From Schmidtea nova (taxonomy: Eukaryota), in the NCBI GenBank assembly GCA_044892505.1, contig CM097882.1:148180001-148244000 (forward strand): a stretch of DNA of 64,000 bases. Reading direction: 5' to 3'. Both the position numbers and the translations under genes were made by a program. Positions 6,632 through 50,100 of this stretch are shown piece by piece. The notes under the pieces are model-generated. The model searched no databases. It saw only the letters and a program-made list of their open reading frames with translations, and was not told where the DNA came from. Each line of letters starts with the position of its first letter. The first letter of the stretch is position 1.

Positions 6632-7258
6632 TTAACTGAACGATCGCAACTCCTGATCGGCAGAATTCTCGTCTCGGCGAATTCCAGTTTCGTGGTACAG
6701 TTCTGGTGCTGGGTACCAACTCAATTTATCCCGGTAGATAAATACTTCCCATAGACGAAGATCCTTGGGCTCCGGATGTTGATCCAATGAGACGCTTCCT
6801 GGAGCGTTTGGGTAGACTTGGACTTCCCCAGTGTCGCTACACCGAGGCCTGTCCAGCAGCAAGTATCCGAGTTGGTAAAATGCGTGTCCTGACATCATCC
6901 CTGTGCTTAGCAGCCAGCGGGGTTGATTTGCATCATCCACGAACTGATAGAACCATCGGTCAGATTTCTGTTCGGTAGGGTTCGAGGAGGACACCCAATT
7001 GGCATCTCCTTCCCACCTCAATTGCCACTGGAATGCGCACGCTGGGATGCTAGCAGCCATACTCATGTGGTTTCTCACCCATCGACGCAGGTGTCGACGT
7101 GCTAGTTTGATAATTTGACGTGGAGCTTCCCTCTCTCCTTTGATCTCGAAATTCGCATTAGGCCTGACGACGGAGCGGATGCGCCGTTTCCTTCGGAAGG
7201 TACGATCTTCCATCTTCACGGTTAGTGAGTCTATAGGCTTCCCTAGACAGCTTTCCAT
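6632..7258 (-). CDS. LTR-encoded ORF, 208 aa, basic N-terminus, Trp-rich globular part (3' LTR copy)
   Basis: 627-nt open frame with normal globular composition; open in both LTRs. Confidence 0.55.
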   Translation of the reverse strand: MESCLGKPIDSLTVKMEDRTFRRKRRIRSVVRPNANFEIKGEREAPRQIIKLARRHLRRWVRNHMSMAASIPACAFQWQLRWEGDANWVSSSNPTEQKSDRWFYQFVDDANQPRWLLSTGMMSGHAFYQLGYLLLDRPRCSDTGEVQVYPNAPGSVSLDQHPEPKDLRLWEVFIYRDKLSWYPAPELYHETGIRRDENSADQELRSFS

Positions 7259-18614: not shown

Positions 18615-18617
18615 TGT

Positions 18618-21600
18618 TTAAGGGATTTCCTCTAACAGCGTCCTTGTTATTGGATGTGCTGTTCTATCCTTTGCATACTCCATTACATTCTTTCGAACTT
18701 CTGTCAATATATTGAAATCGAGCCACCATTTCCATTCTGGTATAATTTCTCTGGTCCTCTTTGCAAGTTCCTTGATGTCTATTGCTTCTCTTCGATTGTC
18801 TTCTAGACTTGCTTGCGGCTTTGGTTGTACTCGCAACATATTAATTCTCGCCGTCTGTGATCTTGTCATCACCCGTTTCTCTGGTGATAGAGTTGCTGTC
18901 TTTGATATTTTCCTGCATCGACATGCATTCACGTATATTGGTCTTACCAATGGATTGTTCACCAATCGTACTCGCACATTATTTTCGTTCACTGTTGTTA
19001 TTTCATATGGCCCTTTGCCTGGTCGTTGGAGTTTCTTCACCGTACCGGGTATTATCTCTGGTGTTTCGATTATCACCCAATCTCCAACTTTTAAATCATG
19101 TGCTTTCACATTCTTTTTCTGATCATGCAGATCCTTGTAACTCTCTTGATAGAACTTGATGTTTAGTTCCGCCGTTTTCCAGATTTCTTGCATTCTTTCT
19201 TTGAACTTTGTAACGTAATCGTCAACCTCCATATACTGTGATAATGGTGGTTGGTACTCCAAATCGATTGGTAAGTTGCAATCTCTTCCGTACATCAGTT
19301 GGAATGGACTTAGCTTTGTTGCCGCATGTATTGACATTCTGTATGCCATTAAACACAGGTTTATATACTCGTCCCAGTCAGTCTGATGTTTACTGACGTA
19401 ATTTGACAACATGCCTATCAATGTTCCATTGAATCTTTCTGTTTGTCCGTTCGTTTGTGGATGGTATGGGGATGTTCGTAATTTCGCAATTCGGAAGTAG
19501 TTCGTAACTTCGTCTAATATTTCACTCATGAAATTCGTTCCTTGATCCGTTAGGATTTTCTTTGGTGTTCCGTATCTGCAGCATATCTCTTCCACCAATA
19601 TTCTCGCGACTGTTTTTGCCTTTTGATTCGGCATTGTGAATGCTTCTGGGAACTTTGTTAGATAGTCCGTGACTACTAATATATACTGATTCCCTTTTAA
19701 ACTTTCCGGCAATGGCCCAACTACGTCCATTGCTATCGTCGCCATAGGTTCTGCAGGTATTGGCATAGGTTTCAGTGGTGTTTTCCACTTCGTTCCGACG
19801 TTCTTTCTTGTCGCACAGGTTACGCAGTTCTTTATCCATTCTTTCACATCATCTTCCATGGTTGGCCAAAAATACTTTTGCCTCAATCTCCCGATTGTCT
19901 TTTTCGCTGACATATGTCCGCCTAATTTTCCGTCATGATATTGAGTCATGATTTCCTTTCGTCTATTCGCAGGTAAGCACATCAATCTCCGTTCTCCATC
20001 TTGTATCAATAACCATCCTTTTTCCAACACGTATCTATGTTGATATTTCTGCATATGTTCGCGTAACACTTGGTTCTTGCCGAATATTTCTATCCCCCTT
20101 TCTTTCAAATACTTGCTGATCAATCCCAACTCCTCGTCTTCGAGTTGATCTTTCCTTAATTCGCTGAAATCCAAATCCTCCGCTATTAATGCACATATTT
20201 TTAGAGCGTTCAGGTTCACCAATTCTGGAAATGTAAACCTTGACATGCAATCCGCGTTTGCATTTGATTTTCCTGCTTTAAACTTTATGAACGGTGAGTA
20301 TTCTTGTAACTGCATCGCCCAACGCATCAATCTACTTGATGATTCTTTATGTTGACCTAACCATACCAATGGTTGATGATCCGTCGAGATATATATTTCA
20401 TGACCCCACAATAGGTATTTGAAATGCTTGATTGCCAATATTATCGCATAGGCTTCTCTTTCCGTGACTGAGTAATTTCTTTCATGCTTCCTGAATGTTC
20501 GACTGTAATATCCAATTACTCTTTCCTTGCCTTCTTCATCGAATTGGCCTAGTACTGCTCCTGCTGCATATCCACTTGCGTCTGTTGCCAACAGAAATGG
20601 CTTCTTAAAATCTGGATGGACCAATATTGGCGCTGTAATCAGCTTGTCTCGTAATGTCTCAAATGCTGCTTGCTGTTCTGCTCCCCACACAAACGACACA
20701 TCTTGTCTTACCAATTCCTGCATTGGCTTTGATATTCCTGCATAGTCCTTGATAAACTTTCGATAATATCCACACAATCCCAAAAATTCTTGTATTTGAG
20801 TCACTGTCTTTGGTGGTGGACATTCTTTGACTTTCTCAATATTCCTTGGATCTGGTTCTTTACCTTTTGCTGATACAATGTGACCTAAGAATGTCACTTT
20901 CTCTTTTGCCCAATCGCATTTGGACGGCTTCAATTTCAGTTTCCACTGTCTCAATTTCACGAACACATTTCTGATATCTTGTAAGTGATCTTCAAATGTT
21001 GCGGAGTAGATTAATAGATCGTCGATATACACCATGCATTGTTTTATGCCATGTGTTACGAAATTCATGCATCTCTGGAATGATGCTGGCGCGTTTGTTA
21101 ACCCAAACGGCATTTTCTTGAATTGGTACAGATCTCGTCCGATTGTGAAAGCTGTCTTTTCTTTATCCTCGTCTTTCATTTTTATCTGCCAAAATCCGCT
21201 TTTTAAATCCAGTGACGTGAAATAGGCTGCTCCTTGTAGCGTCAACAACATTTCGTTTATGTCTGGCAGTGGGTACGTGTCTCTTTTCGTAACGGCATTT
21301 AATCGTCTGTAATCGATACAGAATCTCTGAGTTCCATCCTTCTTTTTCACCATCACCACTGGGAATTGCCAGGGTGAGCAACTAGGTTCGATGACCTCTG
21401 CATCTAACATCTTTTGTACCTCTTCTTCTGCTACTGCTTTTTGAGCTTCTGCCAGTTTATATGGTCGTAATGCGATTGGCGTTTCGTCCGTCAACGGTAT
21501 CGTGTGTAATGTTACATCGCATGTTCCTAAATCTAAATCCGATGCTGCGAATATATCTTGATACTCCATCAACAGTTTCTGTAGCTGTTCTTTTTGTCGT

Positions 21601-24317
21601 TCATCCAACAACACACTGTCGATTTTCCATGGTAATTCGCCTTTGCCTTTCTCATTCTTGTCTGGTATTTCGATTTCGGACATGGGTGTCAATTTACCCA
21701 AATTCTCATTCTCGTATATTATCTTGTCCTCTTCGTTGAAGTTTACCAGATTAATCGGTATCTCACCTTCTTGGTTTATCGTAACCAGTTCTCTTGCCAT
21801 TGGTAATTCCTTCTTCGCTTCGAACTTCTTACTTGGTTCGAATATCATGTCTCCTTTTATTGTCGAATCGATCTTGACATAGCACATCATTTCGTGCCTC
21901 GCTGGCACTACTATTTGTTCCGCATTTGCCACTTTAACTTTCATTCTGCAGATTTTTCCTGTTCTATCTTTTAGTTTCATTGCTCCTAGATCAATTACGA
22001 TTTCCTTGAACAGGTCTGGCATCAGGTCAGTTCCAATAATACATGGTACACTCAGCGATGGTATTACAGCGATGTACGTGTTGATCTCTGCACCTCGATG
22101 CTTAATTTTTACAAACCATCTTCCGGCTACTTCTACTGTCTCTTGACTGCACGCGATTACATGTACATTCGTCTTCTCGATTTCTCCTTGGTTTTTCTCT
22201 GGTATATAGTTAATGTCGATTGCTGAAATATTTGCGCCTGTATCGATCATGGCTTCGATTTCTCTTCCGTTTATTTCTACGGTTGTTGTTAAGATCGGTC
22301 CCATATTTGTGGACATAACTGCTATCGTGTGTGTGTCTTCTAACGAGTCTACGCTTCTACCTCGTTTTACTTTGCATCCTTCGGGAATTATCGGGTATAT
22401 ACTTGTCATCGGCATCATCTGTATCATATTCGGCTTCGCTTTGTATATCGGTTCGTTATACATTGACTGAGGTGGAGCGCTGTATCTCCAATTCTCAACT
22501 GCACTCTTTTCGTTATACTGTGGGATCTGGTTTATATTCGCTTGTCCTCCTTGATCGTCATCGTCATCGTTGCTTGAATCATCTTGTGTTCGATATCCCC
22601 TCACTCTTTCCCATAATCCTTTCCTTTCTTTCTTTAGTTGTCGTCTTGCTTGCTCATCTTGCATTATCTTTTTGAATTTCCTTCCAACATCTTCATTTGT
22701 TCCTTTCATTTTTGCAAGTATTTTCAACAATCTCTTTATTCGATGTATGTCTTTTGAGTGTCCGTGTAACACCATTGTTTTCGCGAGAAATGGTAAATAC
22801 CCTACTACCATTTTCCAATTCACTTTCTTTTCTCTCTTGTAGATATCGAAACACGCTAACATTTGCGTAATTATCACTCTGACGATTTGTATTATCAATA
22901 TAACACCCAGTATTCCAGCCATCATTTGTCCGAATATCAGGAATCTTCCCCACATTGCCTTCATCATATTTTCTGTGGCTTTCTTGAAATGTGCCGGTGA
23001 CAACAGCAGTTCATAATTCGGTCCTTCTCGATAATTCGTTCCTCCCGTTATCGTTACGATATTTGACAGTAATGCTTCTCTTCTTGCCGGGAATAATATA
23101 TTCTGCCTTGCTGCTTCCAAATCTTTTGGACTATAGATTCCGTTGTTTGAGACATCTACGTCGCTGAATTGTCTATCTTTTGATAACTGCATTAGCTCAA
23201 ATTCTCTTGGTGCTATCACTTCGGTTCTTCCTGGGAACATAACCCATTTGCCATCTGGCTTCTGATAAAGCGGTCCGTACGCGTTACTACAGTTGAATGG
23301 ATTTGGTTCAAAACCTGGTGGATTGATGATTCTCGTCACCGGTTGAACGTATCGTACTTTTCCTTTATAATCGATTTCTAGTTCGTTTGTACATTGTCCA
23401 GGTTTCAACTGCGTTGTTGCTGCTAGCGATGCATGTGTCTTTTCGCAAATGTATACATACATTGCCTCTCCAACCACTCTTCCGAAATGTCCTTCTCTCA
23501 GTGGTAATAATGGCATCGCGCTATCTGGATTAGTAATCGCTACGGCCAACTTTGTCTTCAATATTTCTCGATTCAGTATACAATCGTTGTTTATCAGATC
23601 GTAGTACACTTTTTGTAATGAGGCTTGTCCTCTATGGAATAAGAAGTCCATTTTATTATTCACATACAAGTGTAGTTTGATATCCATTGTGTCGATTTTG
23701 GGTTTCGCATTCGGCACTTCCTGCTTTGACACGTATATTCCTGGATAGTTCGTTTCGTATACCGTTGTACTACACTTAAGGGTTGCTTTCCCTTTTATGA
23801 ATCTCATTCCCACATCCTGATTTGTGGTTATCAACACTGTTGGTGTGGTTCTCATCTCTATCCGTTTTTCTCTATGATCTGGTTTCAGTTGTCTTTTGTT
23901 CTCTAAAGCCTCTTTGAGATGTTTTGCTCTAGCTTTGTCATCATCGTCTTCTTCCTGGAACGTTTTTCCTTGAATTTCGTCGAACTTTGCTCCTTGTAGC
24001 AGTTGTAATTGACATTCGTTCATTTTTGGTTTGTATACCAATGTTGACATTCCCGTTTGACACATGCTCCTGTCAATTTTACACATGGATAACGTTTTCA
24101 TTTCTCCTGTGGTCGGTTCGAAGAATGCTTCGTAGCTTTTCAGTTCGACTATATACGTATCCATCACCACTAAGTTGGTTGCGGGTACTCCGAATATTGG
24201 GTAGGTTTCTCCTTGACAATATCCTTCTCCTCCCGTAATCCGTCCTGCTACATAATACGTCTGTTGCAACATCATTCGTGGTTTTCCTTTTATCTTTATT
24301 TTGTCTCTCGTTGTCAC
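18618..24317 (-). CDS. pol: Env(C-terminal part)-Pol fusion ORF: class III glycoprotein ectodomain and TM, then PR, RT, RNase H, integrase
   Basis: Glycoprotein segments YVNNKMDF...NDCILNREIL, GEAMYVYIC, NGIYSPKDL...ILFP and TM FLIFGQMMAGILGVILIIQIV. PR IDTGA; RT YIDD; RH TDAS, TDHQPL; IN H-H-C-C, MDVVGP, TDQG, TERFN, GPY. Confidence 0.96.
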   Translation of the reverse strand: MTTRDKIKIKGKPRMMLQQTYYVAGRITGGEGYCQGETYPIFGVPATNLVVMDTYIVELKSYEAFFEPTTGEMKTLSMCKIDRSMCQTGMSTLVYKPKMNECQLQLLQGAKFDEIQGKTFQEEDDDDKARAKHLKEALENKRQLKPDHREKRIEMRTTPTVLITTNQDVGMRFIKGKATLKCSTTVYETNYPGIYVSKQEVPNAKPKIDTMDIKLHLYVNNKMDFLFHRGQASLQKVYYDLINNDCILNREILKTKLAVAITNPDSAMPLLPLREGHFGRVVGEAMYVYICEKTHASLAATTQLKPGQCTNELEIDYKGKVRYVQPVTRIINPPGFEPNPFNCSNAYGPLYQKPDGKWVMFPGRTEVIAPREFELMQLSKDRQFSDVDVSNNGIYSPKDLEAARQNILFPARREALLSNIVTITGGTNYREGPNYELLLSPAHFKKATENMMKAMWGRFLIFGQMMAGILGVILIIQIVRVIITQMLACFDIYKREKKVNWKMVVGYLPFLAKTMVLHGHSKDIHRIKRLLKILAKMKGTNEDVGRKFKKIMQDEQARRQLKKERKGLWERVRGYRTQDDSSNDDDDDQGGQANINQIPQYNEKSAVENWRYSAPPQSMYNEPIYKAKPNMIQMMPMTSIYPIIPEGCKVKRGRSVDSLEDTHTIAVMSTNMGPILTTTVEINGREIEAMIDTGANISAIDINYIPEKNQGEIEKTNVHVIACSQETVEVAGRWFVKIKHRGAEINTYIAVIPSLSVPCIIGTDLMPDLFKEIVIDLGAMKLKDRTGKICRMKVKVANAEQIVVPARHEMMCYVKIDSTIKGDMIFEPSKKFEAKKELPMARELVTINQEGEIPINLVNFNEEDKIIYENENLGKLTPMSEIEIPDKNEKGKGELPWKIDSVLLDERQKEQLQKLLMEYQDIFAASDLDLGTCDVTLHTIPLTDETPIALRPYKLAEAQKAVAEEEVQKMLDAEVIEPSCSPWQFPVVMVKKKDGTQRFCIDYRRLNAVTKRDTYPLPDINEMLLTLQGAAYFTSLDLKSGFWQIKMKDEDKEKTAFTIGRDLYQFKKMPFGLTNAPASFQRCMNFVTHGIKQCMVYIDDLLIYSATFEDHLQDIRNVFVKLRQWKLKLKPSKCDWAKEKVTFLGHIVSAKGKEPDPRNIEKVKECPPPKTVTQIQEFLGLCGYYRKFIKDYAGISKPMQELVRQDVSFVWGAEQQAAFETLRDKLITAPILVHPDFKKPFLLATDASGYAAGAVLGQFDEEGKERVIGYYSRTFRKHERNYSVTEREAYAIILAIKHFKYLLWGHEIYISTDHQPLVWLGQHKESSSRLMRWAMQLQEYSPFIKFKAGKSNANADCMSRFTFPELVNLNALKICALIAEDLDFSELRKDQLEDEELGLISKYLKERGIEIFGKNQVLREHMQKYQHRYVLEKGWLLIQDGERRLMCLPANRRKEIMTQYHDGKLGGHMSAKKTIGRLRQKYFWPTMEDDVKEWIKNCVTCATRKNVGTKWKTPLKPMPIPAEPMATIAMDVVGPLPESLKGNQYILVVTDYLTKFPEAFTMPNQKAKTVARILVEEICCRYGTPKKILTDQGTNFMSEILDEVTNYFRIAKLRTSPYHPQTNGQTERFNGTLIGMLSNYVSKHQTDWDEYINLCLMAYRMSIHAATKLSPFQLMYGRDCNLPIDLEYQPPLSQYMEVDDYVTKFKERMQEIWKTAELNIKFYQESYKDLHDQKKNVKAHDLKVGDWVIIETPEIIPGTVKKLQRPGKGPYEITTVNENNVRVRLVNNPLVRPIYVNACRCRKISKTATLSPEKRVMTRSQTARINMLRVQPKPQASLEDNRREAIDIKELAKRTREIIPEWKWWLDFNILTEVRKNVMEYAKDRTAHPITRTLLEEIP

Positions 24318-24761
24318 TTATCCATGTTTAAACAATGCTTCGCAGTCTTCTCCTTGCAACACGATTGGTTCTCTTTCCGTTCCTGACATGACAATTGCTG
24401 AATAATGTCCTCTCCCACAGTAGAATGCGAATCTCGTCTTCTGCACCTTGCATTCATTCACCATTGTCTTTATGAGTTCTGCTTCTTGATACACGTGGTA
24501 CCATTGTTCCTTTTTAATCTCTCTCAACTCTACTGGAGTTGCATCTTTGCATTGCTCCGTACCTCTCAATGAGTACTTTTCTCCCAATTTCATTTGATCA
24601 CAATCAAATACTTCGAACGTTGTTACACCTTCTGTGCTTAACAACCATACTAACATCATCATGATTATCGAGTTTAAATTCAACGTCGATCTTCCGTTTC
24701 CTTGCATCGTTTGTCTATTCTCCATTTCTTTCAATACTCCTTCGAGTTTCTTTCTCATCAC
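24318..24761 (-). CDS. env: Envelope glycoprotein N-terminus (signal peptide plus first Cys-rich segment), split from the rest by one in-frame TAA
   Basis: Hydrophobic NSIIMMMLVWLLSTEG, then FEVFDC...C...YHVYQ...ECKV...FYCG..H, as in chuvirus-like glycoproteins. Same frame as 18618-24317; ATG at 24758. Confidence 0.85.
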   Translation of the reverse strand: MMRKKLEGVLKEMENRQTMQGNGRSTLNLNSIIMMMLVWLLSTEGVTTFEVFDCDQMKLGEKYSLRGTEQCKDATPVELREIKKEQWYHVYQEAELIKTMVNECKVQKTRFAFYCGRGHYSAIVMSGTEREPIVLQGEDCEALFKHG

Positions 24762-24779
24762 GTTAGACCCTTCTTTTGT

Positions 24780-25427
24780 CTATTTCTCTTTTATGAACTT
24801 TTCCCATCCTCCTTTTCTGAGGATGTAGGGTTCAATTTCTTTCTCGATAATCATCGCCGTATTCTTGATATGTCTTCCCATCGGACTTGACTTCGGACTT
24901 CCTCGGCTTAGCGTTAACAAATTGTAAATCGTATACGAGATTGCCACTAAATATTTGCTATCCGTCTCTGCTCCGTTAAGTAGCCTTTTTATTAACATCG
25001 TGGTTCCTTGCCAATCTAGATGGTTCGATTTTGTTTTTGCTTTGATTAATTCTGGCATGATCGGTGCTATTGCATTGTGTAGCATCTTTGCCTTTGTACT
25101 AGGTTCATTTATTCGCCACAAATTTTTTAATTCCGGGTCGATTATTGCTAACACATCCATTATCGTTTTGGTGAGCCATTCCTCTCCTTGACAAACTTGA
25201 TTCTCCTCTTTTCCTCTGATCTCTGCGATTTTATCTAATTTCTTCAAGCAAATCTCCCATTGCTCTTGTCTCTTTTCTTCCCTTGTCTTTGGGATTGTTG
25301 TTGCTGGATCTATCTTTGGTCTTCCTCTTGGTCGTTTTTCCATTCCAGTTTCCATTCTACAAATCTCGCTGCTCTTCCGGTTTCTTCTGTAACATCTCTT
25401 CCTTCGTTCGCTCGCTGTTCCAACCAT
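24780..25427 (-). CDS. Bcl-2-like protein with an N-terminal AT-hook-like motif
   Basis: BH2-like EPYILRKGGWEKF; BH1-position LDWQGTTMLI; helical pattern; KRPRGRPK. Confidence 0.65.
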   Translation of the reverse strand: MVGTASERRKRCYRRNRKSSEICRMETGMEKRPRGRPKIDPATTIPKTREEKRQEQWEICLKKLDKIAEIRGKEENQVCQGEEWLTKTIMDVLAIIDPELKNLWRINEPSTKAKMLHNAIAPIMPELIKAKTKSNHLDWQGTTMLIKRLLNGAETDSKYLVAISYTIYNLLTLSRGSPKSSPMGRHIKNTAMIIEKEIEPYILRKGGWEKFIKEK

Positions 25428-28400
25428 CTTTCCATTTCTTGAGTAAACTGGGGTTGTTCTTGCTCGTCTTCTGAATCGTTTACCATTTCTATGACTACCT
25501 CCTGTTCCACTCCTTGATCGTCGATTTCTGCTGGTGACGTTATTGGCATCTCTATTATTCTGTCGAAAATATTCGCCGTTGGTTTTTGAGTCAACTTCGT
25601 TAATTCTTCTATCGCTTCGTCACTGTCTGTTAATATCTCATCTACGTCATATGCTTCTGGCGGTGTTCTCTCTCTCGTTTTTATTGGTGTTGTCCTTGTT
25701 TGTCCCGAACTTGTTCCTGGGATCATTGTTGACTTCATCGGACTTGGTGCACTCATGCTTCCTTTCGCTTTCTTTTCCTCTTTAAACTTCAGTGGTTGAC
25801 CCACTATCTGTGCCACTGTTAGCGTATTCATAAGATCCAATTGTACTGGTGTCAGCCAGATTTCTAAGTTATTATCCAACGATCGTCCTTGATGTTGCAG
25901 GTGGAATGGTAGTTCGTACATCAGTTTCTCTTTAACACTTTTCACTTTCTCTGTTAGCATCACCCAAAACTCTTCTTTTCTTTGATTCGGATACATTATC
26001 CTCAAATGTATTTTCTGTGGCGTTTCTTCCGCAAATTCTTTGTTTCTCCACTTTTTTATTACATTGTCTAGTTGCTCTGGACACCACTCATTAACTCTTT
26101 TGTATTCTGCTGTCGCTTTAGCTACTTTTCTCAAGTTCGTTATGTCTTCTCCATTTGCGATTATGAATTGTGCTAAGCCTTTTATTGTTTGTCTTTTCCC
26201 CCGAGTATTTCCTCCCAACAGTTCTATTAATTCCTCCGTTTTCTGTTTCTCCAATTCTGCCCATATTACTGCAGTTTCTGGTCCGTCTAAGTCCGTTGGT
26301 AATAACCTCCTTGTTACCATACATATTCGTTTCGTATTCAGTTCATATCTGTCTTCTCCTTCCGGATCTTCTTCATACACGCCTCTTGTTACTTTCCAAC
26401 ATTTCTCTTTGTCGTCCCATTGTTTCTCTACTGGCGTCAATCGTCGTCTGTTAAGATCCAATTCTCCCAATATTGTCTCCCATTCTGGCTTTATCTGCCA
26501 GTTCCGATAGATTTCTACTATCTGCCTCAACTTGCACATAATGTCTTCTTGTCGTGCCTTTTTCCTTTCCTCATCTCTTGGTGTTGCTCTTGGCACGTCA
26601 TCCATTCTGATGACATGTATTGTCTGATAATTGTCCCATATGCCGATTTTATACGCTCGTCTTTCGTCACGTTCATTCAGTAGATGTTCGTCTTCCCGTT
26701 CTCGTTGTAATATCGTCTCATTGATGACATCTACTATTTCTCCTACTTTACTATCTGGTATTACCTCAATTTGTCTTGTCTCTTCGTTTGGTAATCTCAC
26801 GGTGATCTTCAGATCTGATACCTCTCCTCGCTTAAACATTTCTTTCCCCATCTTTGCAATTAGCTTGTCCGTTTTGAAGTTCGAATGTCTCGTTTGACTT
26901 GTATCTCGTATGTTCTCGATACATTGCTTCAAATTCCCATACTCGCTTTTTGTCAATTCCTTTCGATGTTTCTTGATTTGTTGGATGATCTGCTCTATCA
27001 TCGTATTCAAATTCTCTGCCAAAATTCTTTCTTTTGCCTCTAGCAACTGAGGTTTTATTCTCATCTCATAACACGTATTCGCTTCTTTGACGATTCCTTG
27101 TAAGTTCTCTTCCTTCTTGGTGTTGCATATAGATAACGTCGTTATTTCTCCTGGCCAGATGCCTGTGTCTATCATATGCGTTCCTTTTCTCACCAATCCG
27201 TTTTCCGAATATATGAATTTGTCTTTGTACGAGCTTCCCAATCTGTCTTCAACCCATCTGTAAATTCCGTCCGTCATTGGGTTCTTTATCCAGATTCTCG
27301 GTGAACACTCGTTTATCCATATTTGTATTATGTATTCGTTGAGTGGTTCTTTCAATAACTTCTCTATGAACTCCTGTATTACCCTCACTTCTCTTTCTTG
27401 TAACCACTCTTTATACTTCGTTTGCCATACTGCTCGTATGAACTTTCGGTATCGTTTCTTGTCGATAAACTCCTCGTTATGGATTACTTCCAACGCATTA
27501 TCCATCAGCTTCTGGATTTCATCTTCCTTTACTGACACTGTTTCTATTGTCTCGACCACTTCCATCTTTTTGTCCTCGTTTTCCGGTTCCTTTAGCATGT
27601 CTCCTGCCAGACTGCTAACTTCGCTATCGTCTTCTTCATCTGACAACTCTTGTCTTGGGTGTCTCAGCATCCCAATATGCGCGGTTGGTCTCGCTTCGTT
27701 TTTGCTAACTTCCTGTATTAGTTCATTCTCTTCTCCCGTTATTTCGACTTTTCCCATCCTCTTCTTCAATTCGTCTATTTCTTCCAACCGTCTTCGTCTT
27801 ATTTTTCCCTTAAATATTCGACTGATCCGAGTTTGATGTTTCACTGGTGGTGGGATTTTCTCCGGTTCCACCTCTCTGATGATCATCACGTTTATTTTTG
27901 TCTCCGTTACTCCCATATCTTCCCATATATCAGTCATCTTTAACTTCACTTCTGGCAAATCCTCTGTTTGTAGGAATGCTTCTCTGGGCAGTTTCGTTAC
28001 TCCCGGAATCATCTCATTTACTTTATTGAACAGTCTTTCCACTTCTTCTTTTACATCGTATTTGAATCGAAACACGTGATCATTCGGCATGATCACCAAC
28101 ATTCCTCTTTGTTTGATTCTCACTTCTTCTTCTTGATTCGCTTCTTTTTCTGTTTCTTTTTCTGTTTCTGTTTCTTTTTCTACTTCTTCAACTTTTTGAT
28201 TCTGCTCTGCGGCTTCTACTTCTTGATTCACTTCTTCTTGTTTTTGCTCTTCTTTTCTTTTCTCTTTAACTTCGAATTCGTCCGACTCATCTTGCTGCTT
28301 CTCTTCCATCATTGCTCGCATCATGTTGATCCTTGGATTTCCCTTTTTTAACTGTTGTAACCGTTGTTGTCTGACTTGTTCTTCTTCTCGTCGTATTCTA

Positions 28401-29632
28401 GCCCATTCTTGATTATGCTTCTGTTGACTCTCCCTATTTTCTCTTTCAGCCTCAGCTTCTATTACCTGGATCATGTTTATCTTTGGTTGAGCAGCTTGTT
28501 GGCTTCCCTTTGCCATGCTTTCGATTATCTCGTGTAATCTAGATACCTCCTGTCTCAACTTGGCTTCTTTCATACTGGCTTCGTTTGTACTGCTATTCGG
28601 GTTGTTACGTTGTTGACCCTGATTCCCATAGCTTGGTCGATTTCCGTAATTCTGTCTATTTCCACTGTTTGACCAACTTCTCTGTTGATTACACTCTCTT
28701 GACATGTGTCCCGCTTTTCCACATGTGTAACACGTTTTCCCATAACATCGATTCTCCGAATGACCTTTTTGTCCACACAGTTTACAGGCTACATTCTGAA
28801 AACAATCTTGTTGCCAATGTCCGTTTTTCCCACACGTCTGACATTGCCTATTCTGTCTGTCATTGTAACTATTTCCTCCATTCGTATTCGCCGTGATATA
28901 TCCGTTATTCTTCCTCGCTGGCGGTTCTTTGAACAATCTCTGTGAATGGGGAATACTTTGATTCATGTTTCTTTTTCCTTGTTCTTCATCTTCTGTCGTT
29001 TTTCCCATTACCGCCGTAATTCTCATGTCGTTCATTGCCATATGCAATTCGAATAGGTTGGCTGCCTCCAACGCTTCATCTACTGTTTTACATCCTTTGC
29101 ATCCCACTTGTGCTCTGATGTCAGGTCTCCTGAGACCTCGTACAAATAACGCTGTCATCAATTCCTCATCCACTGGGCTTCCTCTGTTGAATGCCAGTTT
29201 CGCCAACTTTCTTAATTCACTTGCGTACACTGCATTTGACTCATTTCTCTTCTGTTTTCTTGCTGAAAACTCATCGAATGCTTCATTCAGCACTTTATTT
29301 ATTCCAAACGTCTGTTGGAAGAACTCCTTGATTGTTTCCCACGTTCTGGGTGGATTACTTCCAGATCTCTTTTCAATATACAGATCCAATGCGCTATCTT
29401 TCAAGTATAGCGGGATTCGATTTGCTAACGTTTCTGCACTCCATCCGCATATATCCACGAATATGCCAAATTCCTTTAGAAACGTGTCCAATCTACTGGC
29501 GTCTCCATTGAATGGTTCGCCCTTGAATTTTTCTCTCAGATCCTCTCTGTGATCACTCATCCCGATTCCACTGTCTTGGAATACTGTACTAGTTTTCTTT
29601 GCTTCTATTTCACCACTTGTTTCTGGATTCAA
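25310..29632 (-). CDS. gag: Gag (capsid, three CCHC zinc knuckles) with a very long C-terminal extension
   Basis: Retrotransposon-gag-like PFNGDASRLDTFL...LYLKDSALDLY; knuckles CQTCGKNGHWQQDC, CKLCGQKGHSENRC, CYTCGKAGHMSREC. The frame stays open without an ATG up to 30007. Confidence 0.93.
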   Translation of the reverse strand: MNPETSGEIEAKKTSTVFQDSGIGMSDHREDLREKFKGEPFNGDASRLDTFLKEFGIFVDICGWSAETLANRIPLYLKDSALDLYIEKRSGSNPPRTWETIKEFFQQTFGINKVLNEAFDEFSARKQKRNESNAVYASELRKLAKLAFNRGSPVDEELMTALFVRGLRRPDIRAQVGCKGCKTVDEALEAANLFELHMAMNDMRITAVMGKTTEDEEQGKRNMNQSIPHSQRLFKEPPARKNNGYITANTNGGNSYNDRQNRQCQTCGKNGHWQQDCFQNVACKLCGQKGHSENRCYGKTCYTCGKAGHMSRECNQQRSWSNSGNRQNYGNRPSYGNQGQQRNNPNSSTNEASMKEAKLRQEVSRLHEIIESMAKGSQQAAQPKINMIQVIEAEAERENRESQQKHNQEWARIRREEEQVRQQRLQQLKKGNPRINMMRAMMEEKQQDESDEFEVKEKRKEEQKQEEVNQEVEAAEQNQKVEEVEKETETEKETEKEANQEEEVRIKQRGMLVIMPNDHVFRFKYDVKEEVERLFNKVNEMIPGVTKLPREAFLQTEDLPEVKLKMTDIWEDMGVTETKINVMIIREVEPEKIPPPVKHQTRISRIFKGKIRRRRLEEIDELKKRMGKVEITGEENELIQEVSKNEARPTAHIGMLRHPRQELSDEEDDSEVSSLAGDMLKEPENEDKKMEVVETIETVSVKEDEIQKLMDNALEVIHNEEFIDKKRYRKFIRAVWQTKYKEWLQEREVRVIQEFIEKLLKEPLNEYIIQIWINECSPRIWIKNPMTDGIYRWVEDRLGSSYKDKFIYSENGLVRKGTHMIDTGIWPGEITTLSICNTKKEENLQGIVKEANTCYEMRIKPQLLEAKERILAENLNTMIEQIIQQIKKHRKELTKSEYGNLKQCIENIRDTSQTRHSNFKTDKLIAKMGKEMFKRGEVSDLKITVRLPNEETRQIEVIPDSKVGEIVDVINETILQREREDEHLLNERDERRAYKIGIWDNYQTIHVIRMDDVPRATPRDEERKKARQEDIMCKLRQIVEIYRNWQIKPEWETILGELDLNRRRLTPVEKQWDDKEKCWKVTRGVYEEDPEGEDRYELNTKRICMVTRRLLPTDLDGPETAVIWAELEKQKTEELIELLGGNTRGKRQTIKGLAQFIIANGEDITNLRKVAKATAEYKRVNEWCPEQLDNVIKKWRNKEFAEETPQKIHLRIMYPNQRKEEFWVMLTEKVKSVKEKLMYELPFHLQHQGRSLDNNLEIWLTPVQLDLMNTLTVAQIVGQPLKFKEEKKAKGSMSAPSPMKSTMIPGTSSGQTRTTPIKTRERTPPEAYDVDEILTDSDEAIEELTKLTQKPTANIFDRIIEMPITSPAEIDDQGVEQEVVIEMVNDSEDEQEQPQFTQEMERWLEQRANEGRDVTEETGRAARFVEWKLEWKNDQEEDQR

Positions 29633-30516
29633 CTCTTCTTCTTCACTACTCTCTGTTTCGTTATCTCTTGATTCGCTTCTTGTTCTGTTTTCACTGACTA
29701 GTTCACTGTCTATCGTTTCTACTTCGTTTTGTACTTCTAGATCCTCTGGGGTTTCTTCTTGATTCTCTTTATTACTCGAATTATCGCTGATCTCTGCTGG
29801 TTTATTCTTTTGTTGCGCTGTTTTATTTCCTGGTCTTGTCTTTTTCGCTGTTTTTCTTTCTTCTTCTGTTAGGATCGCTTCTGTGTTGACCTTTTGTTGC
29901 GCTACTTTAGCTGCTGCTTTTGCCTTTTTTGCTGCTTTTCTTTCTGCTTCTGTTAGGATTGGTATTATACCTGTCCTTGTTTCGCGTTCCGTAATTTTGT
30001 CTATTACTCAACTTCTTATATTCTCAACTGATTTTTCTACTTCGCTTTTGCTTTGCTTCTTCTTCGATTTGGTTCCTTTGATTGCTCTGACTGCTAGATT
30101 GCCTTGATTTGCTTGATTGATTTGTTTCCTTAAAACAAATAATCACTTACACGATACATCCCCGTTATCGTGTTTCTCGTCCCTCTCACGGGTGTAGTCA
30201 TAATTCATGAAGATCCCCATTTTTCCCATTTCCCTTGATTTTAAGTCTATTTAAATTATCTATGCAGTCGTATAAATTATCTATACTTCATCAAATACAC
30301 CAATTACTTTTCCCCAGTTCCCCAATTACTTTGTCGCTCAGCGCTTTTATTATCCCCTTTATTTTCCTCAGGCTTCTCTGGCTCTGAGTTTAAATTTCCC
30401 CTTATCTATCGACTACTCTGTCTCTCGACTACTCACTCGCACTCTTAACTGTGTTAACTACTTCATTTCAACTCTCATCTCTACTCACCTTTAATTTAAC
30501 TGACATCTCTCGTTGG

Positions 30517-30980
30517 CCTGTTGGGCTTTCCAATCAGCGCCTTTAATCTCACCTGTTATCTCGACTTTATTTCTCTCAACATCACTCATTATCCCATTAG
30601 CCTGCTGGGTTTTCCAGTCAGCGCTTTTAATCTCACTTTTTACTCCTGCTTCGTTATTCTCGACCTCGATTGTCGTTTCTTTAGCCTGCTGGGTTTTCCA
30701 GTCAGCGCTCTTATTATCCTCCGTTTATCTCTTTACTATCGACCTTTAATCGTTCTTTACTCCGATGATCATCACTTTTTGACCTGCTGGGTCTTCCAGT
30801 CAGCGTCCTCAATTTCACTACTTTATTATTACTCACTTTTATTCTCTCGATCTTTCCTGATCGTTATCATTGACCTGCTGGGTTTTCCAGCTAGCGTCTT
30901 TACCACTTTACCTGTCTTAACAAACCGGTTTCATTTTACTCTCGTCGAATCTCATGGTCTGCTGGGTTTTCCAGTCAGCA
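30517..30980 (-). repeat. Six copies of a 23-nt hairpin motif separated by 60-75-nt dissimilar spacers
   Basis: cctgctgggttttccagtcagcg-like copies start at 30517, 30601, 30685, 30783, 30874 and 30958. Confidence 0.9.
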
Positions 30981-31307
30981 CCCTATACTTACTCACTTTA
31001 TTTTATTACTCCTCTCTGTATGCATACTTTAACATCACTAGGCCACATAATCAGCTTTACTCGCATTTATCAATACCCAGGTGCGCACCTTTAACTTCCT
31101 CGTTACCAATTTGGTTTCTTTCAACCGTTATTCTTCATTATTCGCTATTCATTTTTACTATTCATCATTTATCCTCATTATCAATTATTCATCTCTATTA
31201 TCGCTTGTTTAACTCGACTATCCGGATAGTTTTGTACTTAATTTAGTCCTCATTTGCCTCAATTCGTCGTCTTTCTCGTGGGCTTTTTACTCCATATCTT
31301 ATTCTGG

Positions 31308-31830
31308 ACGAGAACTACGCTCACAGCTGAGAACTATGCTCACTAACGCGGGCTGCGTTTACTACGAGACTAGGCTCACTGGCGAGAACTACGCTCAATG
31401 ACGAGAACTATGCTCACTAGCAAAACATAGTTGTTACGAGGGTTTTGCTTACTGATGGAAACTCTGTTTGCTCCGGAGATTATGTTCCCTGATGAGAACT
31501 ATGCTCACTGATGGTGACTACAGGAACTTCCTGATGAGAACTAAGCTCACTTTGATGACTATGTTTATTAATGAGAACTCTGCTCACTATTAGGCTTGTG
31601 TTCGCTAACGAGAACCGTGCTCACTATGATGTTGTGTTTTATGACGAGACCTACGCTCACTAAGATGTTATGTTTTATGACGAGACCTATGCTCACTATG
31701 ATGTTATTTTTATGACGAGACCTATGCTCACTATGATGTTAGGTTTTATGCCGAGACCTATGCTCACTATGATGTTATGTGTTATAACGAGACCTATGCT
31801 CACTATGAGACCTAGGCTCACGAACGAGAA
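31308..31830. repeat. Degenerate tandem array (about 15 copies of gaga[a/c]ctatgctcact, 33-34-bp period in the regular part)
   Basis: Recurrent gacgagacctatgctcactatgatgtt units. Confidence 0.85.
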
Positions 31831-32524: not shown

Positions 32525-32983
32525 TTAAAAGTACACTGTTATTTTCTCGGATACGGGAAGGTTGCACATAGGACATCGTTCATTTATTTTACAGTCATTA
32601 CAGAATCGAAAATGCCCACATGGCAACAACATTATCTGTATTTTGTTTATTTCACAGATATAACACGTCAGATACTGTCTCGTATATTCGGTTGTCATTC
32701 TTATCCACTCATCGTGTTTTGTTGTTAACTGTTGTTCTAGCCTGTGGCACTCGATATTCATCTCAGGGTTGTTTAGTCGCTCTTTATACCATTGATATCG
32801 TGTTGCTGTATCCACTGTATTCTTATTCTCACTTAAGCTCATCATCCTTTCAGCTCTTTCTGTGTTGTTTGTCGGTTCATGATATTCTCCTACTTCGAGT
32901 CGTTTTAACTTTCTCATTACTGTTTTTACTGCCTCGTTGTTTGTATCGAAAAACGTTTGCATTTCTTTTATTTTGTTCTCCAT
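32525..32983 (-). CDS. Coiled coil plus C-terminal IAP/MDM2-type C3HC4 RING protein, 152 aa
   Basis: CYICEINKIQIMLLPCGHFRFCNDCKINERCPMC, ending ITVYF; no BIR domain seen. Confidence 0.85.
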   Translation of the reverse strand: MENKIKEMQTFFDTNNEAVKTVMRKLKRLEVGEYHEPTNNTERAERMMSLSENKNTVDTATRYQWYKERLNNPEMNIECHRLEQQLTTKHDEWIRMTTEYTRQYLTCYICEINKIQIMLLPCGHFRFCNDCKINERCPMCNLPVSEKITVYF

Positions 32984-33536: not shown

Positions 33537-33932
33537 AATTTATGCTGGTGTGTTGGTTGGATGGACAACTGAGATCATTAAGATTTTATATGTTAGGGTG
33601 ATCTCGCCAACATAAAAACATTCCCCCGCTGACACCCATGATGTATCCCTAACTACTCATCATGTTGGTGCTGTGTCAACGTTGTGAAATGACAAGGCAG
33701 GTGAGCAACCTTTCGGCTACTATTCCCTTGTTTATTCACGGGTCCACCACTACCGATAGAAGGTGTTTGTGGATTTCTTTCGGTCCCTTTATAACGCGCT
33801 CCTTCCTTTGCTCTAGGGTAATTTAATTTTAACGTATCTGCAGCTTTTAAATGAATCAGGTTTTCATTACATTCAATTCTCAAACATTCCACAAGCAAAC
33901 AAGGCAAGTCAAATCATTCATCTATAATACAT

Positions 33933-34514
33933 TTATTTATAACTTAACAACACGGATGGTCTGATTACATTCCATAATTCCTGCTCGGAGAGTCCACTGA
34001 GCAGATCGACCTCTATGTCCAGGCGTTCGGCATATGCTCGACGCTCTCTACGTTTCTTCGCTCCGAGGCGATTCCTTCGCTTTGTCCTTTGAGACCCTTG
34101 TGGAATTATTGTGGTTGCTTCAGTAGTTGTAGTTACTGTTGTCTCCTTTTCGGTTTGTGTACTCGCAGTAACCGCTATCGAGTTTACCCATCGGTTGAAA
34201 GTGCTTGCCCGGATCACTGGGCGTAACTGTTCCGTTATGAATTCTTGGGTCGACACCTTGAGATAATTCGACAGTTCCAATTTCAACGCTGCGACCTCTC
34301 TAGCCTGCTCGTCGGCTACCTGTTCAGCTCGATGCCTCGCTTGTAGAATGGCCTTAACCCTCTCGGGATTAAACCACGTCGTTTTGACTCTTTGATGTTC
34401 ATCGCTTAACTGACGTAAGCGGCTCTCAAGGACTCGGGAACGTGCCTTGTGTTCACGTGCCTCTTGTTTGTAGTTTCGATTTTGGTTCTCGCTCATATCT
34501 GTAAAATGTGACAT
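33933..34514 (-). CDS. LTR-encoded ORF, 193 aa (5' LTR copy)
   Basis: Copy of 5870-6451 with one amino-acid difference (G/D). Confidence 0.55.
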   Translation of the reverse strand: MSHFTDMSENQNRNYKQEAREHKARSRVLESRLRQLSDEHQRVKTTWFNPERVKAILQARHRAEQVADEQAREVAALKLELSNYLKVSTQEFITEQLRPVIRASTFNRWVNSIAVTASTQTEKETTVTTTTEATTIIPQGSQRTKRRNRLGAKKRRERRAYAERLDIEVDLLSGLSEQELWNVIRPSVLLSYK

Positions 34515-34694
34515 TAATTAGGGTATGGGTAATCTGTCTGGTTTTCCAGTCACAGTTTTCTTATCAAACAATTGTGCTTCATCCTCATGCTCTTCTCATA
34601 CATTCGAAACCAAAAATAAAACCCTTTTAAAACGAATACATTTATTTTTCTATTTATAACAGGTATTCCCTCTCTGAATGTGTCTCTCTCGCGA

Positions 34695-35321
34695 TTAACT
34701 GAACGATCGCAACTCCTGATCGGCAGAATTCTCGTCTCGGCGAATTCCAGTTTCGTGGTACAGTTCTGGTGCTGGGTACCAACTCAATTTATCCCGGTAG
34801 ATAAATACTTCCCATAGACGAAGATCCTTGGGCTCCGGATGTTGATCCAATGAGACGCTTCCTGGAGCGTTTGGGTAGACTTGGACTTCCCCAGTGTCGC
34901 TACACCGAGGCCTGTCCAGCAGCAAGTATCCGAGTTGGTATAATGCGTGTCCTGACATCATCCCTGTGCTTAGCAGCCAGCGGGGTTGATTTGCATTATC
35001 CACGAACTGATAGAACCATCGGTCAGATTTCTGTTCGGTAGGGTTCGAGGAGGACACCCAATTGGCATCTCCTTCCCACCTCAATTGCCACTGGAATGCG
35101 CACGCTGGGATGCTAGCAGCCATACTCATGTGGTTTCTCACCCATCGACGCAGGTGTCGACGTGCTAGTTTGATAATTTGACGTGGAGCTTCCCTCTCTC
35201 CTTTGATCTCGAAATTCGCATTAGGCCTGACGACGGAGCGGATGCGCCGTTTCCTTCGGAAGGTACGATCTTCCATCTTCACGGTTAGTGAGTCTATAGG
35301 CTTCCCTAGACAGCTTTCCAT
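34695..35321 (-). CDS. LTR-encoded ORF, 208 aa (5' LTR copy)
   Basis: Copy of 6632-7258 with two amino-acid differences (D/N, F/L). Confidence 0.55.
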   Translation of the reverse strand: MESCLGKPIDSLTVKMEDRTFRRKRRIRSVVRPNANFEIKGEREAPRQIIKLARRHLRRWVRNHMSMAASIPACAFQWQLRWEGDANWVSSSNPTEQKSDRWFYQFVDNANQPRWLLSTGMMSGHALYQLGYLLLDRPRCSDTGEVQVYPNAPGSVSLDQHPEPKDLRLWEVFIYRDKLSWYPAPELYHETGIRRDENSADQELRSFS

Positions 35322-36342
35322 TTTGACCGTGTTGCTCGGAGCTGAAGAAGATGTCTAGATTAATTGACAGACACTGCTGCTGATCACAACTATATATACC
35401 GTTCGACCTACCCGACTTATCGACCAATTCTCCGTAGGCCTCAGCAGATCATTTGTATTCTACTAGACAAGTGACTGCGATGTAACGTAGGCCGTGGTTA
35501 ACGCTTTATTTTGTGAACTAATTCACTCCGCACTTTTCTCAGACTGTTTAGCTACGCTAAATTTGTATTATTGTTTACGATGTTATTTTTATATTTATTT
35601 TTCATCAGCCGTACTCAGTCACTCAACAATTTTCTATCAATGATCATAACCATCAACTATCAACGATCATGTTACTTTGGGGAACTCTAACGATCTCTTA
35701 CCGAGAATACCTTCTAATGTCCATCATTTTATCGGTTCTCAATGCATGTAACTTGTTTATTACATCTCTCGGGGGCTGGATACGTGTGATAGAATGCGCA
35801 GTCGACTACTATTACTCCTTGATGCTGTACCCTCCGTCTCTGAATTCATAGGGTCATACGACTTATGCCTTGCATACTATTATTCTCGTCAACACTCAAT
35901 TTATCAGCACTGGTGTTACTTGTTATATGTACATGTCCCTTGTCTAGATATCGCCATGATGTATACCATTCATACGAGGCTGTCTTTACTTTAATTGAAT
36001 TTACGATCGCTAGATCTTACTAGATACCCTATGTGCATTCACCCCTTTCCGCTTACCAAATATTTAGGAAACCTATGGTCCCGCCGCATCGGTACCTCAC
36101 ATGAAAATGTGTTGCACCGAGAGGCCAAGAATCCGTCAGGCTGTTAGGCCTCCGGAAAATCCTTATCGATTTTAGCATAGTTACAAATTATAATTATGAG
36201 GGTTTAAGATAATAATACAACTCGAATTTACCTTTTATTTCCACTTCCAATCAGATTTCCAATATTTTCTACAAGTTGTCAGTATTTCACACTCACTTAC
36301 ACTTGGTAAAAATAACATTGACAAATACTGATTTGACTCCGG

Positions 36343-36350
36343 TATTTATA
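36343..36350 (-). promoter_or_regulatory. Candidate LTR TATA box TATAAATA (copy at 8280-8287)
   Basis: About 400 nt inside the sense start of the LTR, flanked by a CCGGT/ACCGG inverted repeat. A CCAAT motif lies upstream; TCAGT and a GTAAGTG donor (36300-36294) lie downstream. Confidence 0.5.
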
Positions 36351-38166
36351 CTAAACCGGTGTTGTTGGTCAGCCAATCAGCATCGAGCGTGTGTGTCTGT
36401 TTGGTCATTCTTTTGTGCTTGTCGGCTTTTTGCTGCCTAATTTTACTCAATGATTTGTTTGTTTAATCATGCGGTAAGTTTATTTTTGTGTGATTTAATT
36501 TTTATTTTATTTTGTTTTAGGTCTTCGGTGACGTCCGCCCACCTACTGTCAATTTCAGATTTTTTTCTGCTTCGCATGAGTGAGTTTTTGAGTTTTATTT
36601 TGTTCTGATTACTGCTTTATTTCTTTTAGATGTTGCCGCTCATTTGCTACTTTTTATGCTGGTAATTTATTTTGTTATTTTTTGTAGCTTTATTTTATTG
36701 ATTGTATATTATTTTCGGATGCTGCTCGATTTGGCTGGCCCAACACAGGTAACTTGCAAGTAGTTAATTCAAAATACACGATAACGCCAAATAACAAAGT
36801 AAAAATATAACACAATAGGATGAATAAACAAGGATAAAAAAAATTTTAAAATCACCAACCTAGTAGGTATACAATCCCGAATTTCATAAGACTGATAATC
36901 ACACTATAAAGAAAAATTTAGTAATAATTTGATTTTTTTCGACTTTTACTTTCTTTTAAAATTTTAATATTTAGTTTTTCAATAATAAGAGCATATGAAA
37001 TTAATAAGTAAAAACCACAATCCTGTGTGTAGGAAAACAATCAATTTGAAATAAGCCTGATGAAAATAATATATATTCAGTATTGACATTGATGGCATCT
37101 TTGACAGCCTATCCCGTTGATTTTTATTGATTGTGCTGGGATTCGGCACTGTTTGCACATTACACATATTGTGTTTGGGATTCGATGGTTTTTGGTTGAA
37201 TTCTTTATTGGTTTCACTCTGTACAAACAATTGCGGATTTTAATTCTCATCCATTAGACCGACATTGGAAAATTCATTAACCTGACTCATATTGCAGCCA
37301 CTGAAAATCGAAGACTCATTAGAAATGTTTAAGAACGAGAATTGTTGGAGATTGTTTTGAAATTGTTGAAGTAAATGAGAATTTGCCATTCCAAACGGAG
37401 TACATAACTAAGATGAAGACGAAAGAATTGTCGTATTCTATGATTGATGATTGTTATTGACACGATCAGATAGTTTATAAGTATTCGGTTCAGATAGCTT
37501 CTTTTCACTCAGTATCTCCACAGATCTCGGATTCATCACAACGTTTGGATTTGAAAATATTTCATTTGACTTCTTTTTTGATTTTGAATTAAAAATAGTT
37601 AGTTCTTGTTGGATCATGTTGGATTTATTTGAAAAAAGTATCTCAGAAAAAGTAATTATTAAAACAAAGCTATTTAAATCTTCCATTCAATAATTATTTA
37701 ATAAATTAATTAATTAAAAAGAGAAATTTATAATTTAAGGCACTACACTGTTTAAACAACCCAAAACTCATTTTAAAAATTCAAATAAAAGAATTTCAAA
37801 AAATATGGGAAAAGAGAAAAAAACAAACATTATTTATTTATAAAGAAGACCGTAGTAAAAAATGCGTACAAAACAATTCATCAATTAAATCAGTAATAAT
37901 ACAGAGGAATGAGACATTCGTTATTAGTTCAATCGAGAAATTTCTCGTATTTGGTTTACATAACATTTTCGGCATAATAATTTGATATTAGCTTCTGAGC
38001 GATCAGTTGCCCATACAAAACAATTGGACTCGTTTGACAATAATCTTAAACAATTCTAAAATATAGACAAGATGATTATAATCTCATTGTAAATAAACAT
38101 TTTAAACACAGAAATGCTTATTAAATTTTGAAAAGAAGCACTGTAACCGTATAATTACAATTGTAA

Positions 38167-50098: not shown

Positions 50099-50100
50099 AA

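Follow-up and report, generated by a model that had tools for sequence, protein, structure and literature searches.

Giant Burro-like elements have RNA genomes near the size limit of retroelements, and one such element, found in 64,000 nt of DNA from Schmidtea nova (the window hereafter), raises the question of what a 27-nt hairpin, iterated six times in its leader, does for an RNA of this kind. The array is a precise six-fold candidate with natural variants, through which the escape from splicing and the choice of RNA for packaging become testable. A preliminary description of the locus had proposed a packaging or export role for the array, which is plausible on the sequence. This reading is considered here together with a more specific one, in which the hairpins would link splicing to packaging, and with several alternatives.

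The host element and its leader

The window contains a minus-strand LTR element (5480-36745), whose 31,266 nt include 896 N and a probable 4-kb insertion. Its main parts, from the 5' end of the sense strand, are the following:

33543..36745, minus strand: 5' LTR, 3203 nt, with two ORFs of 208 aa (Arg-rich N-terminus) and 193 aa
33519..33536, minus strand: primer-binding-site (PBS) candidate, 6 nt past the 5' LTR
32525..32983, minus strand: RING-finger ORF, 152 aa, between PBS and arrays (PF13920, E 5e-9)
31307..31822, minus strand: second leader array of at least 14 19-nt units, weakly structured, with a GUGAG motif in common with the hairpin spacers
25310..29560, minus strand: gag; three CCHC knuckles, long C-terminal extension, open frame beginning at 30007
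17346..24779, minus strand: env (class III fusion protein, PF24664), protease, RT, RNase H, integrase and ankyrin in one frame
5480..8685, minus strand: 3' LTR, 3206 nt, with 10 mismatches and 3 gap columns against the 5' LTR

From the 5' LTR onwards the order is PBS candidate, RING ORF, two arrays, gag, PF24664, protease, RT, RNase H and integrase, followed by ankyrin, an endonuclease-VII ORF, the 896-N gap, a TRAF/MATH ORF and further ORFs. Judging from its sequence, the element is a Burro-like gypsy with the order gag-env-pol. The insertion is young, since the LTRs are 99.6% identical, have TG...CA ends and are accompanied by a 4-bp target duplication. The frame of this copy is broken between gag and env, inside env and before the ankyrin region, and in-frame stops of the env-pol frame are located at 24318-24320 and 18618-18620. 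The PBS candidate presumably resembles tRNA-Pro. No row of the supplementary PBS table of PMC13524379 matches it.

The element agrees with the description of planarian Burro, on whose maps tandem repeats are drawn (PMC6431247), and it fits the GAG-ENV-POL class of nematodes, bryozoans and flatworms, as outlined in PMC13524379. Features shared with Burro/GYPSM1 are a length above 30 kb, 3.2-kb LTRs, env between gag and pol, three CCHC knuckles, and MATH/TRAF, ankyrin and RING domains. On the other hand, TRAF is here a separate downstream ORF, unlike in Burro, the likeness to which is judged from its description. The BIR, BCL2, SUMO-like and dUTPase motifs of Burro were found neither at Pfam E 0.01 nor in two PDB sequence searches; some Burro motifs were detected in the review by HHpred only (PMC6431247).

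The closest proteins are env-pol or gag-env-pol polyproteins of 2.6-4.1 kaa with 42-48% pol identity, and relatives at 42-45% pol identity, such as P0134 and P0135, are single CCHC-env-pol polyproteins of 3.9-4.1 kaa. No named Burro protein is among the 240 pol matches listed, and the TRAF search gave matches at 24-29% only. Related leaders were sought by scanning GTDB contigs with a 15-sequence env-pol alignment; the two loci obtained from 11 candidates are short, leaderless pol fragments, and the hairpin is absent from both (best score 9.4 bits). The relatives L001 and L002 and the protein P0149 sit in bacterial-labelled genome bins, most likely through contamination.

Some other features of the element may be mentioned. 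The presence of a RING ORF (32525-32983) besides the TRAF and ankyrin ORFs suggests that the element interferes with ubiquitin and immune signalling of the host. None of six ORFs is depleted in AATAAA, so that a role in poly(A) suppression is without support. The segment 12800-17350, with lower GC, no strand skew, a 934-aa endonuclease-VII ORF and the 896-N gap, has TGACTCAT repeats, which we take to be AP-1-like, on both sides, and it is probably a nested or captured element. The second leader array has fold energies of -1.4 to -4.2 kcal/mol and window z values of at least -1.8, and its U-G/U-A alternation favours the sense strand; it could be an enhancer array or a set of single-stranded protein sites. 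Part of it has a 36-nt period, and it is also AUG-free over 415 nt.

The Arg-rich LTR protein had been named earlier as a possible partner of the hairpins. Its 208-aa ORF, with Arg-rich stretches, occurs at 34695-35321 and 6632-7258. As a Rev-like partner it found no support: homologue searches gave three weak matches only, to Ig-repeat proteins at residues 66-123, atlas matches were uninformative, and the predicted model (pLDDT 32) was unusable. The relatives P0150 and P0151 hold Ig domains in polyproteins.

Geometry and covariation of the hairpins

Copies are numbered 1 to 6 along the plus strand; the sense RNA corresponds to the minus strand, so copy 6 comes first:

30956..30982, minus strand: copy 6, heading the array on the sense RNA; double change at basal pair 3
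30872..30898, minus strand: copy 5; bulged A one pair lower, 10 bp kept
30781..30807, minus strand: copy 4; double change at basal pair 2 (common to copy 5), loop A-to-G
30683..30709, minus strand: copy 3; same sequence as copy 2, and the sole copy without an upstream donor-like motif
30599..30625, minus strand: copy 2; double change at basal pair 1 (common to copy 3)
30515..30541, minus strand: copy 1, last on the sense RNA; double change at an upper-stem pair, loop A-to-G
30338..30360, minus strand: decayed seventh unit, 5' flank and 5' arm alone, 196 nt from copy 1

The six stem-loops of the preliminary description, with their spacing of 84-98 nt, were recovered at start-to-start distances of 84, 84, 98, 91 and 84 nt (array 30515-30982). 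The stem is not the 7-bp one with a single bulge then described, in which the three basal pairs and a G were overlooked: the 27-nt unit comprises 3 bp, a bulged G, 3 bp, a bulged A, 4 bp and a 5-nt loop, and every copy has 10 Watson-Crick pairs, both single-base bulges and an A-rich AARRC pentaloop. The unit sequence quoted at that time is exact in copies 2, 3 and 6; copies 1 and 4 carry the A-to-G change in the loop, and in copy 5 a two-base swap shifts the bulged A one pair down, with that bulge and the 10 pairs retained. The array lies ~2.5 kb from the PBS and ~0.95 kb ahead of the likely gag AUG, in a leader of ~4 kb. Its location had been given as just upstream of gag, which is true of the side but loose as to distance: 508 nt separate it from where the open frame begins, and 955 nt from the likely AUG (29560).

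Each hairpin has a fold energy of -10.9 to -11.6 kcal/mol as RNA. All six appear in both the MFE and the centroid structure of a 541-nt sense region (z -3.15; 0/100 shuffles as stable), and all six fold on the antisense strand too, with equal significance (z -3.93). In a 1-kb context the pair probabilities are 0.84-1.0 (0.86-0.99 in copy 6), except in the lower half of copy 5, where the lower five pairs reach ~0.43 and the upper five 0.98. A pairing descriptor, built from these same copies, matches the leader (3982 nt) exactly at 5 places and none of 200 shuffles at any; on the same strand of the whole window there is one other exact match, which is all-A/T. A covariance-model search of the window gave no seventh full copy (next match 14.6 bits vs 55-66), and the decayed unit at 30338..30360 receives no score. 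Rfam, including IRE, hammerhead, TAR, CTE and Psi, gave 0 matches in 64 kb at the gathering score, and the 5 sub-threshold matches in 30000-33600 (E 0.29-5.3) fall on none of the hairpins; a tRNA-like element was sought and none was found. In 30626-30871, three spacers hold a second small hairpin of 4-5 bp with similar ends (C-G, G-C, A-U, then U-A, C-G or U-G); this would speak for the sense strand.

The compensatory change formerly seen in copy 1 is real, and it is joined by double-sided changes at three further pairs, each of them basal, which brings the total to 4 of the 10 pairs (6 cells). In a fixed register 59 of 60 cells are paired, the sole exception being in copy 5, and slid registers pair just 13-45%. 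The covariation check that had been suggested gave a score reached by 1 of 500 shuffles, which has to be read knowing that it rests on six related copies, whose kinship alone can outscore the tool's shuffles. When the four double changes were simulated as eight independent substitutions, all matched in 0 of 2,000,000 trials; the analytic value is ~1e-7, assuming four events read by eye from six related copies. Ungapped pairwise identity among copies is 81% in the stem, 83% in the bulge columns and 87% in the loop, against 21-49% in the flanks, and both bulges persist in 6/6 copies. These double changes, together with bulges that are kept while the flanks decay, give good support to a selected, repeated stem-loop in the part of the leader that separates PBS and gag. 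Sequence is kept in the upper stem, loop and bulges, and the basal stem is kept in pairing alone, as one expects of a protein-binding site resting on a base whose sequence is free.

The same data bear on a neutral origin, according to which the array would be a decayed tandem repeat whose arms were kept complementary by template switching between inverted arms. One-step arm copying would yield double changes without G-U intermediates, as observed, and some spacers still align. Nevertheless, arm copying should erase the bulges, which all copies have kept, and the identity of 81-87% in loop and upper stem stands against that of the flanks; besides, reverse transcription tends to delete direct repeats. 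We hold this origin to be extremely improbable.

What the hairpins prove is pairing within a single strand, the strand and the polymer not being set thereby: there are no G-U pairs in 60 cells and sense and antisense energies are equal, so hairpins alone leave both the strand and the choice between RNA and DNA unfixed. The sense-RNA reading is based on the leader position and on the strand-specific donor-like motifs described below. A DNA-level element has been weighed in two forms, an insulator or enhancer array, and single-stranded DNA hairpins or integrase attachment-site mimics during reverse transcription. The lack of G-U pairs would suit it, and so would a fold energy of -5.5 to -6.3 kcal/mol as DNA. 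Related to this, gypsy, ZAM, Tirant and accord of Drosophila are env-bearing gypsy elements that likewise carry a 5'-UTR repeat array, and those repeats are described as DNA insulators or protein-binding sites in PMC8872304, where the word 'hairpin' does not occur, whereas the present array covaries as a stem. A likeness to the LTR ends points in the same direction. The preliminary description had equated the core 6-mer with the sense LTR terminus; this holds in five of the six copies and fails in one, and a match at least as long is seen at 4.0% of 3037 control positions ending in CA. With the other LTR end copy 1 has 8 nt in common, as 0.26% of controls do. The LTR ends being near-inverted copies, the two matches are not independent; the test, besides, was post hoc. 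Moreover, a duplex site gives no cause for the co-change of partner bases 16-26 nt apart, and the arms are unequally spaced owing to the bulges. A role in DNA is considered distinctly improbable.

Hairpins of fixed shape might also be recognised by host factors, dynein-adaptor or dsRNA-binding proteins, for RNA localisation or stability. Shape read-out fits the fixed bulge geometry, and localisation signals are known to take the form of repeated bulged hairpins; the stems, however, are short (10 bp) and GC-rich, with no Rfam family match, and signals of the Egalitarian type are longer and AU-rich. The chance of such a role appears to be small.

The spacers had been called dissimilar and purine-rich, which they mostly are: purines make up 68-77%, and among the 10 pairs of five spacers most align no better than z 1.7, the departures being one pair at z 4.7 and two at z 2.3-2.7. 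Selection for C-poor linkers was rejected as specific evidence, given that other non-coding windows of the leader are equally C-poor. All array spacings are multiples of 7 (84, 84, 98, 91, 84, and 196 to the half copy). With two free lengths, the simulated P is 0.013 for a divisor of at least 7 and 0.09 for a divisor of at least 4; when the half copy is included, the values are 0.001 and 0.02, respectively. No 7-nt periodicity was found inside the spacers (lag-7 z -1.0; phase test p 0.21), and a weak 3-nt periodicity has p 0.01 as one of 13 periods tested.

An antisense coding repeat, or an array processed into small RNAs as CRISPR-like guides, was also considered. A stop-free frame of 248 codons runs over the array on the plus strand (30500-31246; P 0.008 vs 500 shuffles of that 1.1 kb) with five of the six hairpins in one frame, and the weak 3-nt periodicity of the spacers would agree with it. 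This hydrophobic frame is devoid of Met, the spacings of 98 and 91 shift the frame around copy 4, and several other antisense frames of at least 150 codons exist along the A-rich element. As to guides, no match to the spacers longer than 15-18 nt exists elsewhere in the window (best E 0.002 and 0.012), and a 10-bp stem is too short for microRNA processing. Both variants are very unlikely.

Splice-site-like motifs and the start of gag

Three further features surround the array or follow it:

30483..30999, minus strand: 5' splice-site-like cluster, with GT at 30996, 30836, 30552 and 30488 (8-9/9) and weaker sites at 30992, 30911 and 30636
30128..30146, minus strand: acceptor-like site, the T-richest among 17 pyrimidine-rich AG sites of the element; putative in its use as acceptor
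29561..30156, minus strand: 596-nt stretch in which no frame has an AUG, running up to the likely start of gag

GT sites were scored over 9 positions of the 5' splice-site consensus. The 30.4-kb sense strand contains seven sites of at least 8/9, four of them within the array or at most 60 nt from it; the remaining three are one LTR site counted twice and one in pol. Spacer-only shuffles yield 0.45 such sites at the array (P 0.0014), and a GTRA motif lies 10-14 nt upstream of 5/6 hairpins (P 0.0009), although these P values are too optimistic, because the units have one ancestry and the window and the pattern were picked after inspection. Four-letter patterns common to at least five upstream windows number 4 of 512, and all are donor-like. 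There are no such sites on the antisense strand, and the non-coding sense sequence elsewhere (3827 nt) has none at 8/9; by the looser GTRAG criterion the array shows no enrichment (5 vs 4.0, P 0.34). In duplex energy with the 5' end of U1, sites 30552 and 30488 rank first and fourth among 1505 GT sites.

Sites of at least 7/9 are fewer than in synonymous shuffles both in gag (4 vs 9.0, P 0.02) and in env-pol (5 vs 11.6, P 0.005); this depletion is absent in the ankyrin, TRAF, 10646 and EndoVII ORFs, and depletion at 8/9 is absent in every ORF. The donor-like motifs by the hairpins point to a coupling with splicing. The sole 9/9 site is 30488, downstream of all six hairpins; if it were the true donor, the hairpins would remain in the spliced RNA, and 90-odd upstream AUGs would stay as well.

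A 14-bp hairpin contains the acceptor-like site and exposes the AG at the tip, a structure that could regulate the site or else explain the T-run without splicing. The interval 30115-30175, at the start of the AUG-free stretch, has two strong sense-strand hairpins (window z -4.8), one with the acceptor-like AG in its loop and the other with the last upstream AUG. The stretch itself holds no AUG, where dinucleotide shuffles have a mean of 5.0 and reach zero in none of 2000, and it is the longest of 589 gaps, the N run apart. About 99 AUGs precede it, so expression of gag probably depends on splicing, on entry of ribosomes inside the leader or on a promoter of internal position.

In 11 of the 25 relatives compared, the alignment of Gag begins near residue 146-166 of the open frame and 24-99 residues past the relatives' own starts, so that gag most likely starts at the AUG at 29560. 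In 29561-30146 the frame of gag runs without a stop through 149 codons ahead of its first Met, and through 44 more past a single stop (30008-30010); this extension is Lys/Ala/Glu-rich, has an internal duplication and may be a coding extension reached by splicing.

A translation element, in which the hairpins would recruit ribosomes or initiation factors (IRES or shunt) and bypass the RING ORF and the 99 AUGs, could be proposed from these observations, since cap scanning through the leader is impossible and the AUG-free stretch is preceded by two strong hairpins (~30115-30175). Even so, 13 AUGs lie between the interior of the array and the start of that stretch, so that ribosome entry at the array would not evade them, and isolated identical hairpins are atypical of IRES architecture. 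This role is improbable.

Candidate roles of the array and known systems

The reading that we tentatively favour, from the sequence and by analogy, is that the hairpins are protein-bound, probably as sites of the Gag nucleocapsid, that they block the adjacent donors and that they mark unspliced RNA for packaging. The unit would consist of a donor-like motif, a short A-rich linker and the double-bulged hairpin. The gag-env-pol mRNA would arise by splicing into the 30128 acceptor, with some or all of the hairpins removed, and the model predicts a spliced mRNA with this named acceptor. The likeliest protein would be the three-knuckle nucleocapsid of Gag, which might bind the hairpins cooperatively at 10-14 nt from the donors and hinder or divert U1, so that the leader would stay unspliced and the RNA would be committed to export and packaging. 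Six copies could provide avidity and a threshold of Gag concentration in the choice of the ~28-kb genome. Ligand, splicing and packaging are here drawn by analogy with retroviral Psi and the RSV decoy donor. Against such a switch, copy 3 is without a donor-like motif and the loop is without G in 4/6 copies.

Like retroviral Psi (HIV-1, MLV, MMTV, MPMV), the array consists of bulged stem-loops amid unpaired purines in the 5' leader between PBS and gag, it adjoins donor-like sites, and its element encodes CCHC knuckles. In contrast, it is one hairpin given six times at 84-98 nt and not a set of unlike hairpins, it lies ~2.5 kb away from the PBS, with 1 kb between it and the AUG, and its host is a gypsy element; a palindromic loop is missing from the hairpins, and no self-complementary dimerisation motif was found in their AARRC loops. 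A typical Psi lies nearer the PBS than this. Retroviral Psi is located in the 5' UTR, combines stem-loops, bulges and unpaired purines, and is removed or refolded by splicing (PMC12789967).

The negative regulator of splicing (NRS) of RSV is a 5' splice-site decoy to which U1 binds, as stated in PMC9143442. The array resembles it in having U1-complementary donor-like sequence in a purine-rich setting, which could hold the balance towards unspliced RNA; however, the RSV element is single and lies inside gag, ~300 nt past the donor, whereas here several donor-like sites occur, each with a repeated hairpin, upstream of gag.

The likeness to coat-protein operators formerly drawn is partial. In common with the PP7, MS2 and Q-beta operators and their cassettes, the array has a lower stem, a bulged A, an upper stem and a short loop, with a tolerant base and dissimilar spacers. 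According to PMC7952577 the MS2 operator requires a 2-bp upper stem, which does not agree with the 4 bp of the array (5 in copy 5), and PP7 has a looser rule, an upper stem of at least 4 bp and a loop of 5-8 nt with a U/A segment, which the array fits on geometry. The hairpins have in addition a bulged G, the analogy is one of shape alone, and the element encodes Gag; the leviviral coat-protein Pfam family was found in none of the 18 ORFs scanned.

A plain multivalent packaging or export signal, with hairpins and GUGAG binding Gag or an export factor and with no role in splicing, draws on the same structural evidence and on the same location, with the PBS on one side and gag on the other. GUGAG may be a motif for protein on single strands, since it is found again, 15 times, in the second leader array, where the donor bases on the exon side are poor; zinc knuckles favour G-N-G. 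Looped purines are bound by MMTV Gag, according to PMC8096270. Such a signal leaves unexplained the concentration of four of the seven best donor-like sites at the array, the depletion of such sites in gag and env-pol and the AUG-free stretch, and no Rev- or Rex-like partner was found in the homologue, atlas and structure-model examination of the LTR protein. It is the chief competitor of the switch, possible though doubtful. Taken jointly with the splicing switch, that is, as a protein-binding mark on the genomic RNA irrespective of splicing, the reading becomes fairly probable.

A bolder form of the switch can be imagined, in which the array would be a natural counterpart of the MS2/PP7 cassettes, made of modules of decoy donor and double-bulged hairpin at 7-nt multiples; a Gag lattice might nucleate on them in register and flip the 28-kb RNA from splicing to packaging above a threshold. 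We regard this as unlikely. If the ligand turned out to be small and specific, it and the hairpin might be used together as an orthogonal RNA tag.

Structured leaders, decoy donors, bulged-A operators and UTR arrays are all known; the iterated double-bulged hairpin with donor-like motifs is a new combination. In the open-access literature searched, neither an array of covarying hairpins in the leader of a Burro-like element nor the cis-acting RNA signals of giant Burro-like elements were found described.

Besides the element described here, the window holds other mobile sequences. The region 45400-51900 contains a second element with a gypsy pol ORF on the plus strand (46189-49686), followed by an 83-nt tandem pair and an ISXO2-type transposase fragment, the whole set lying between 100-nt inverted repeats; it resembles an LTR element lying nested inside a DNA transposon of the Merlin type. 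A long interrupted inverted repeat at 39413-41043 (arms 39413-39548/40908-41043 and 40183-40349/40756-40935) probably represents nested non-autonomous DNA transposons.
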